A stretch of 20,586 bases of DNA from a virus (taxonomy: Duplodnaviria > Heunggongvirae > Uroviricota > Caudoviricetes), in the IMG/VR virus record IMGVR_UViG_2563366976_000012, positions 1-20,586 of that record, one strand, 5' to 3'. The notes beneath the pieces were generated by a model that did no database searches, was not told where the DNA came from, and saw only the letters and a program-made list of their open reading frames with translations. Made by a program: the position numbers and the translations under genes. Shown here one piece after another: positions 1,972 through 2,705 of the stretch. How positions within the stretch are numbered: the first letter of the stretch is position 1; every line of letters starts with the position of its first letter.

Positions 1972-2001
1972 AAATAATAATCAGATGAAAATCAATAATC
2001 A
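1972..2001 (-). promoter_or_regulatory. Candidate sigma70 promoter for the tRNA triplet
   Basis: Minus sense TTGATT - 17 bp - TATTAT, with the -10 ending about 10 nt before the tRNA 5' end; overlaps the 3' end of the AraC-family gene. Confidence 0.4.
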
Positions 2002-2705
2002 AGCCCTTGCCTGGATACATATCTGTCTGGCGGGAAGCCATAATAGCGGTGAAATACAGAAATAAAGTAGGACCTGCTTGAATAACCGCATTTTTCTGCT
2101 ATAGCCTGTCCATATCCATGCCGGGAACATAACATATTTACAGCAACACGCATCCGCTCTTCCAGCAACAAGCGACTGAACATGCCCCCTTCATTTTTCA
2201 GTTTTGTCTTTAACAAACTCTCACTCATATGCAACTGTAGAGCAATCGCACCAAGCGTCCAGCTTGCTGATATATCTGTCTGAATTATCGCCCTGACTTT
2301 GGCACTTATGCTGGATAAACATCCACTTAAAAACAATGACATCCGTTCATCTGTTTCAAACAGAGACAGGCAGGCCATCATAAGAAACATATCCGTGGCC
2401 TCTCCGGAAAATCCCTGGCTGGTAATTAAAGCCGCAGCCAACGCAGGATTGTTGGGTTCCAGCAACAGGTAAAGCGGAATGTCAGTCAGACGAGTCCTCG
2501 TCAGCTTATGCTGACTTTCCAGATATTGACTTACGACGGATTCGCTTATATCGACAATTTTAACTTTGCCATAATGCATAAGGAAAAGCTCCCTGATGCA
2601 TTTGGTGGCCAGAACAACTGAGCCTGGCTTAAGTGACAACGTATCCTTTTCAAGAAAAATATTAATTGGGGAGCAAACCATGATAACTGAACAGACAACA
2701 GCCAT
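1992..2705 (-). CDS. AraC-family transcriptional regulator, AppY/YdeO/GadX-like (prophage cargo)
   Basis: 237-aa ORF. C-terminal AraC-type double HTH (WTLGAIALQLHMSESLLKTKLKNEGGMFSRLL...GYGQAIAEKCGYSSRSYFISVFHRYYGFPP). N-terminus MAVVCSVIMVCS resembles AppY MDYVCSVVFICQ. AT-rich, lacks a good SD. Confidence 0.8.
   Translation of the reverse strand: MAVVCSVIMVCSPINIFLEKDTLSLKPGSVVLATKCIRELFLMHYGKVKIVDISESVVSQYLESQHKLTRTRLTDIPLYLLLEPNNPALAAALITSQGFSGEATDMFLMMACLSLFETDERMSLFLSGCLSSISAKVRAIIQTDISASWTLGAIALQLHMSESLLKTKLKNEGGMFSRLLLEERMRVAVNMLCSRHGYGQAIAEKCGYSSRSYFISVFHRYYGFPPDRYVSRQGLDY

Follow-up and report, generated by a model that had tools for sequence, protein, structure and literature searches.

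An allele of psrB as probable exchangeable cargo between Q and the tRNA genes of a lambdoid Escherichia coli prophage

The AraC-type regulator gene located between the antiterminator gene Q and the tRNA cluster of the DNA analysed here (record IMGVR_UViG_2563366976_000012, a stretch of 20,586 nt referred to as the window) is, as judged by its sequence, an allele of psrB ('prophage-encoded secretion regulator B', Z2104) and not an ortholog of YdeO, AppY or PatE. It very probably encodes an AraC/XylS activator and forms a small cargo unit that is exchanged in the late region of lambdoid prophages, between Q and the tRNA, (stx), nanS-p and lysis genes. The first-pass annotation had recognized an AraC regulator of the AppY/YdeO/GadX lineage at 1992-2705, an assignment borne out by Pfam helix-turn-helix domains, NCBIfam similarity to YdeO and GadX and BLASTP relatives. 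Its placement between Q and the tRNAs was also correct, the gene lying downstream of Q (4009..4380) and ending 28 nt upstream of the tRNA cluster, on the same strand. The genes of this interval are:

4009..4380, minus strand: Q antiterminator gene (Q-family annotation in matching loci)
3316..3933, minus strand: gene for a 205-aa WYL-domain or hypothetical protein (phrog_8498, unknown function), immediately downstream of Q
2840..3037, minus strand: 65-aa ORF (phrog_331; TrmB-family in some records), conserved, upstream of the cassette
1992..2705, minus strand: psrB-type gene, an uninterrupted ORF with ATG start encoding a 237-aa AraC/XylS-type regulator
1888-1963, minus strand: tRNA(CAT) of Met/Ile2 type (ARAGORN, Rfam), annotated as tRNA-Ile or tRNA-Met in relatives
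1804-1880, minus strand: tRNA-Arg(TCG) (ARAGORN; Rfam tRNA match)
1714-1790, minus strand: tRNA-Arg(TCT) (ARAGORN; Rfam tRNA match)

The window covers the left half of a lambdoid prophage inserted beside mlrA (yehV) and spans the region from the nanS-p esterase gene to the integrase, with the lysis genes just outside its start. E. coli 23CRST038 (human faeces, Ecuador) matches it over the full length with four differences, at 3122, 4348 and 12092 and as a 1-bp poly-C indel at 12779, the latter closely following the stop codon of the cI-like repressor gene. The prophage encodes an integrase, cI/cro-like products, Q, and lysis and structural proteins, and has pseudogenes in its early region. Gene order is Q, WYL-domain gene, 65-aa ORF, psrB-type gene, tRNA-Met/Ile(CAT), two tRNA-Arg genes and nanS-p. 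The 205-aa protein is labelled 'WYL-domain-containing' by PGAP in one record and hypothetical in another, and in other prophages its slot is taken by a CPBP protease gene or other genes.

[quoted passage not shown] It scores 50.3 bits against the Pfam family HTH_AraC (PF00165, in two stretches; gathering threshold 26.6) and 39.8 bits against HTH_18 (PF12833; gathering threshold 33.6), and consists of a beta-rich regulatory half (residues ~1-130) followed by the double helix-turn-helix DNA-binding half (residues ~134-233). The highest NCBIfam similarity is to YdeO (E 4e-31, residues 1-229) and the next to GadX (E 1.2e-24, C-terminal half), with scores below the respective equivalog cut-offs (108.5 vs 348 bits for NF007407 and 87 vs 500 bits for NF007432). 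A provisional PROSITE-type pattern for the second AraC helix-turn-helix matches PatE, AppY, YdeO, GadW and GadX and leaves out the Psr clade, which may depart from it at two positions (Gly197 and His219). Among solved structures, residues ~110-230 are best matched in sequence by the GadX DNA-binding domain, Rns, CsvR and ToxT; the first of these (3MKL) aligns to residues 134-233 with E 7e-19, and Rns reaches E 5e-16. An AlphaFold2 model built from a 12-sequence alignment is of low confidence (pLDDT 62.8, pTM 0.40) and has a beta-rich N-terminal half. When this low-confidence model was compared at full length with Foldseek, Rns, CsvR and ToxT ranked first, with TM ~0.3 and rmsd ~17 A. These AraC virulence regulators, at ~20% identity, are the best matches in both structure and sequence. 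Given the low confidence of the model (pLDDT 62.8, TM ~0.3), a fatty-acid pocket or a mode of dimerization cannot be claimed.

Some database annotations of the psr protein (195 aa) start at the internal Met43. The ATG at 2705 is favoured, since an N-terminal 'VCSVI' motif is shared by the psrB-type protein, PatE, AppY, YdeO and GadW/GadX. PHROGs places the protein in phrog_1450, a family of unknown function, and the names attached to its database cluster are limited to 'helix-turn-helix domain-containing' or 'AraC family', the PGAP entry WP_000301785.1 carrying the former.

Identification as psrB is based on the protein encoded at the Z2104/psrB locus of EDL933, which is of equal length and identical at 234 of 237 residues (98.7%). 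The three substitutions relative to EDL933 PsrB are A103V, H196Y and I201V; both variants at positions 196 (H/Y) and 201 (I/V) are present among family members, and the two segments predicted as recognition helices (residues 161-172 and 210-223) are unchanged. A Z2104 primer pair with a 158-bp amplicon has been given in a typing paper (PMC4763077). The window gene contains exact matches to both primers, at 2288 and 2426 and with a spacing of 158 bp, and the two likewise match the gene of the re-sequenced EDL933 genome (L006:25274-25987), again delimiting 158 bp. The EDL933 locus (OI-57/CP-933O) resembles the window in having the 65-aa ORF, psr, tRNA(CAT), tRNA-Arg and then nanS-p in the same succession, as well as the same promoter-like region. 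The two differ beyond the tRNAs: in the window three tRNA genes are followed by a region with STnc100/AsxR-like sRNAs and then directly by nanS-p, whereas in EDL933 two tRNA genes are followed by genes for TerB and a DUF3927 protein. The window prophage also differs from that of EDL933 PsrB in its insertion at mlrA/yehV, its Q type and its background, a human faecal isolate.

PsrA (z1789) and PsrB (z2104) have been described as AraC-like regulators encoded by prophages, with 90% identity between the two (reviews PMC10877973 and PMC8565820). A second O157:H7 copy, WP_000261909.1 of strain F8952, was recovered by a synteny-weighted search and is 90.7% identical both to the window protein and to EDL933 PsrB. 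As this value fits the published PsrA-PsrB identity of 90%, the F8952 copy is probably PsrA. It occupies the same cassette position (Q-family gene, TrmB-like small ORF, psr, three tRNA genes, nanS-p) and differs from the window gene by substitutions that fall mostly in the N-terminal domain, where dN/dS is ~0.46-0.55. The F8952 prophage has a different appearance, with a Q-family gene, a CPBP protease gene, a frameshifted TrmB-like ORF, psr, three tRNA genes and nanS-p. The reviews assign psrA (z1789) to CP-933N/OI-50, and a tblastn search of the re-sequenced EDL933 CP-933N region (NZ_CP008957 1,625,001-1,693,000) recovered no psr homolog, so that locus-tag mapping in this multi-prophage genome is not fully clean; the old z1789 mapping may reflect the original EDL933 assembly. 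In this re-sequenced EDL933 prophage, located at potBC, there is no psr homolog between the Q gene and nanS-p.

PatE, AppY, YdeO and GadX, which had been proposed as the comparators, do belong to the same lineage (29-41% identity by BLASTP), yet the appropriate ones are PsrB and PsrA (98.7% and 90.7%). Full-length BLASTP matches give 37% identity to PatE, 35% to GadW, 31% to YdeO and about 29% to AppY, while GadX is 41% identical over the DNA-binding domain only. PatE (Z0321, CP-933H), AppY (DLP12), YdeO and GadW/GadX have in common with the window protein the two-domain architecture and the 'VCSVI' motif, and they have been reported to converge on gadE and the AR2 acid-resistance regulon. In location, PatE and AppY differ from the window gene, as they are encoded at the far end of cryptic prophages, past the tail-fibre genes, and not between Q and the lysis genes. 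More distant lambdoid phages encode a 39% identical homolog between Q and the holin gene.

The moron-type character attributed to the gene is well supported by the exchange of its locus among prophages. In six aligned loci, the slot is occupied by psr in four and by a DNA methyltransferase gene in two. The latter two, in prophages of UPEC 26-1 and 21AH006 that are syntenic with the window on both sides, encode a 350-aa protein between the 65-aa ORF and the tRNAs:

L013 3410-4459 and L014 3056-4105: methyltransferase gene in the psr-equivalent slot (window ~1980-2768), with flanking 65-aa ORF, terminator and tRNA -10 shared

Upstream, homology between the psr and methyltransferase loci covers the 65-aa ORF, the terminator hairpin and ~65 nt, and stops exactly at the cassette -35 (about 2768); downstream, it restarts at the TATTAT -10 (about 1980), just upstream of the first tRNA. 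These boundaries delimit a putative cargo unit of ~790 bp (about 1980-2768) made up of a promoter-like site and the ORF, and, by alignment, they mark the Q-to-tRNA slot as a defined site of cargo exchange. The presence of the methyltransferase in syntenic prophages indicates that the psr gene is not needed for the phage program. The AT-rich surroundings noted at first reading were likewise recovered: GC content is 43.8% in the ORF and 42.2% in the cassette, against 48.0% in the window and ~53% in the flanks, although it is the entire Q-to-tRNA stretch (41.5%), and not the psr gene alone, that is AT-rich. The cassette thus has the moron traits of replacement in related phages and deviant base composition, together with a promoter match, and is without a strong terminator of its own. 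In phiSTEC1575-Stx2k (OQ243220), deposited as a complete phage genome, a 91.6% identical psr allele occurs in the same slot, in the order Q, small TrmB-like ORF, psr, tRNA-Met/Arg/Arg and stx2AB.

The 65-aa ORF is not specific to psr, as it also precedes the methyltransferase in UPEC 26-1 and 21AH006. Its product looks like a small winged-helix protein. K-12 safA (L009 2762-2959), upstream of ydeO, has the same length (65 aa) and position; a role of the 65-aa ORF product as a Psr partner or SafA analog was considered and rejected, given that it has no sequence similarity to SafA and that the ORF also precedes the methyltransferase in loci devoid of psr.

The following signals were predicted around the cassette:

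2741..2768, minus strand: predicted sigma-70 cassette promoter, ATGATA-16-TATAAT (10/12 match), ~35 nt upstream of the ATG
1974..2002, minus strand: predicted tRNA-cluster promoter, TTGATT-17-TATTAT, sigma-70-like (9/12 consensus match)
2836..2853, minus strand: terminator-like hairpin and T-run, overlapping the stop codon of the 65-aa ORF, kept in all six aligned loci
1682..1699, minus strand: hairpin resembling an intrinsic terminator, with a T8 run, immediately past the last tRNA and the first strong one downstream of psr

Both promoters are predicted from consensus matches only, and the number of promoter-like sites in this region does not exceed that of shuffled sequence (6 vs 5.9). The ATGATA-16-TATAAT site is kept in all four aligned psr loci, and its -35 marks the cassette boundary. 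The hairpin at 2836..2853 would separate upstream transcription from the psr promoter. A promoter for the tRNAs had been proposed to overlap the 3' end of the gene; a candidate was indeed found there, its -35 located in the final three codons of psr (Leu-Asp-Tyr) and its -10 ending 11 nt before the mature tRNA 5' end, though it remains a consensus prediction. In the methyltransferase loci, where the upstream sequence is unrelated, the same tRNA -10 is preceded by TTGCAG, again with a spacing of 17 nt. This conservation of the -35/-10 geometry in two non-homologous contexts lends circumstantial support to the tRNA promoter. The cargo slot may be constrained, in that any cassette, psr and methyltransferase alike, has to provide a -35 located 17 nt from an invariant -10 in order to keep the tRNAs expressed. 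A search for a strong terminator between psr and the tRNAs found only a weak 5-bp hairpin (2013..2000) overlapping the 3' end, which makes read-through from psr into the tRNAs probable.

The functions of PsrA and PsrB considered here are those described in reviews (PMC10877973, PMC8565820 and PMC10057817) citing Tree 2011 and Yang 2015. PsrB binds to the promoters of hdeA (-132 to -45) and gadE and improves survival in acid; both PsrA and PsrB increase the expression of GadE and YhiF and, through this, repress type III secretion (PMC10877973, PMC8565820). By analogy, the window gene would probably act in the following manner. Its own predicted sigma-70 promoter, located just past the upstream terminator, would allow expression in the lysogen independently of Q. 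The C-terminal double helix-turn-helix would then bind AT-rich sites in the host hdeA and gadE promoters, as published for PsrB, and turn on the GAD/AR2 regulon, so that increased acid tolerance would be the expected output in this host. Where a LEE island exists, raised GadE/YhiF would, according to the literature, repress type III secretion indirectly. Transcription from the psr promoter would probably continue into the three tRNAs, with the last codons doubling as the tRNA -35. The suggestion that the gene is a lysogenic-conversion factor acting on host promoters thus gains support, by analogy, from host targets (hdeA and gadE) reported for its nearest characterized relative.

The location of the gene in the late region, on the strand shared by Q, the tRNAs and the lysis genes, and its membership in a PHROGs family of unknown function (phrog_1450) could also suit a regulator internal to the phage, controlling late genes, tRNAs or lysogeny and playing no part in host physiology. 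We consider this very unlikely, in view of the methyltransferase that takes its place in syntenic prophages and in relatives of the Stx2k phage, of the binding to host hdeA and gadE promoters and altered acid survival reported for a 98.7% identical PsrB, and of its preservation in intact form by cryptic prophages and, in the window, next to a Q gene interrupted by a nonsense codon. The best homologs had been anticipated, in that case, to be phage-internal regulators with no host targets; what was found instead is PsrB, identical at 234 of 237 positions and reported to act on host promoters. It is slightly less probable still that the gene is a functional ortholog of YdeO, GadW/GadX, AppY or PatE relocated onto a phage. 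YdeO does provide the best NCBIfam profile (E 4e-31, full length), followed by GadX, and PatE, GadW, YdeO and AppY are all matched by BLASTP over their full length with a common N-terminal motif; however, the scores fall well under the equivalog cut-offs (108.5 vs 348 for YdeO, 87 vs 500 for GadX), and identities of just 29-37% contrast with the 98.7% match to a distinct, separately named protein.

A silent, decaying remnant (e.g. H-NS-repressed) making no contribution in this host would account for the AT-rich DNA and for a prophage with a Q nonsense codon and early-region pseudogenes. This seems improbable, if less so than the two preceding explanations, as neither the ORF nor the promoter-like site is disrupted and both are conserved, copies with at least 99% identity are found in 595 genomes, and dN/dS stays under 0.45, with its minimum in the DNA-binding domain. 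An allele of psrB acting on host promoters remains the preferred reading, and the distribution of the gene agrees with this: in 5,426 complete E. coli genomes it is intact in 726 (about 13%), with a median copy number of 2 and a maximum of 4, the 595 genomes mentioned above being those with a copy at 99% nucleotide identity or more. Among alleles, dN/dS amounts to 0.2-0.43 for the whole gene, 0.13-0.31 for the DNA-binding domain and 0.3-0.57 for the N-terminal domain, from small counts; the psr gene is under moderate purifying selection. Six further Psr homologs have been described in EHEC, EPEC and neonatal-meningitis E. coli (NMEC), according to a review, and the locus is present in the NMEC strain S88 with 99.6% identity.

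One feature particular to the window is codon 11 of Q, which is TGA (4346-4348), and TGG (Trp) in 23CRST038 and FDAARGOS_144, the two closest and nearly identical genomes. Either this prophage may have lost the ability to express its late genes or the stop may be a sequencing error. If the stop is real, Q-dependent late transcription has probably been lost and psrB must rely on its own promoter for expression. The psrB allele of this host may be a domesticated host regulator, the nonsense codon having probably disabled the late program; its role would then be to adjust acid resistance, and perhaps further regulons, in a host outside EHEC in which the type III secretion output may have no target. 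That the allele represents either such a domesticated regulator or the occupant of a cargo slot constrained to supply the tRNA -35 is put forward as a tentative proposal, more doubtful than likely.

The lysogenic-conversion hypothesis is already published for the Psr family, including its NMEC homologs. Since PsrA and PsrB have been described and homologs outside EHEC noted, the finding adds little: earlier publications already cover the gene family, its location on prophages, the targets and the occurrence outside EHEC, and the present result is a correct re-discovery of a known regulator. What can be of use is, on the one hand, the recognition that the PGAP label of WP_000301785.1 hides a characterized acid-resistance and virulence regulator that also occurs on a deposited Stx2k phage genome and, on the other, the cassette boundaries and the conserved geometry of the predicted tRNA promoter, small annotations that bear on the exchange of cargo in the interval from Q to the lysis genes of Stx-like phages.

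Other regulatory elements were observed on the same prophage. The 490-nt gap between the tRNAs and nanS-p contains, according to Rfam, an STnc100-family sRNA (1430-1638, minus strand, 131.7 bits) and an AsxR 'anti-stx2' sRNA (1374-1426, plus strand, 63 bits, which is exactly the gathering score). The EHEC sRNA EvrS has been reported from the corresponding position, with z1789 on one side and the esterase gene z1793 on the other (PMC11774850). A PerC-family regulator gene (164 aa) is encoded at 7741..8235 on the minus strand; psr-bearing prophages have been associated with type III secretion effector loci and Pch (PerC-like) regulators (Tree et al., via a review). Two tandem modules with C4-antisense RNAs (9782-9869 and 10648-10735) and isrK-type RNAs (9894-9970 and 10757-10833), all on the minus strand, lie within or beside two tandem Rha-family regulator genes (9170..10051 and 10048..10887). 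The repeats are ~75% identical and look like a duplicated immunity or antirepressor module of the P1/P7 style.
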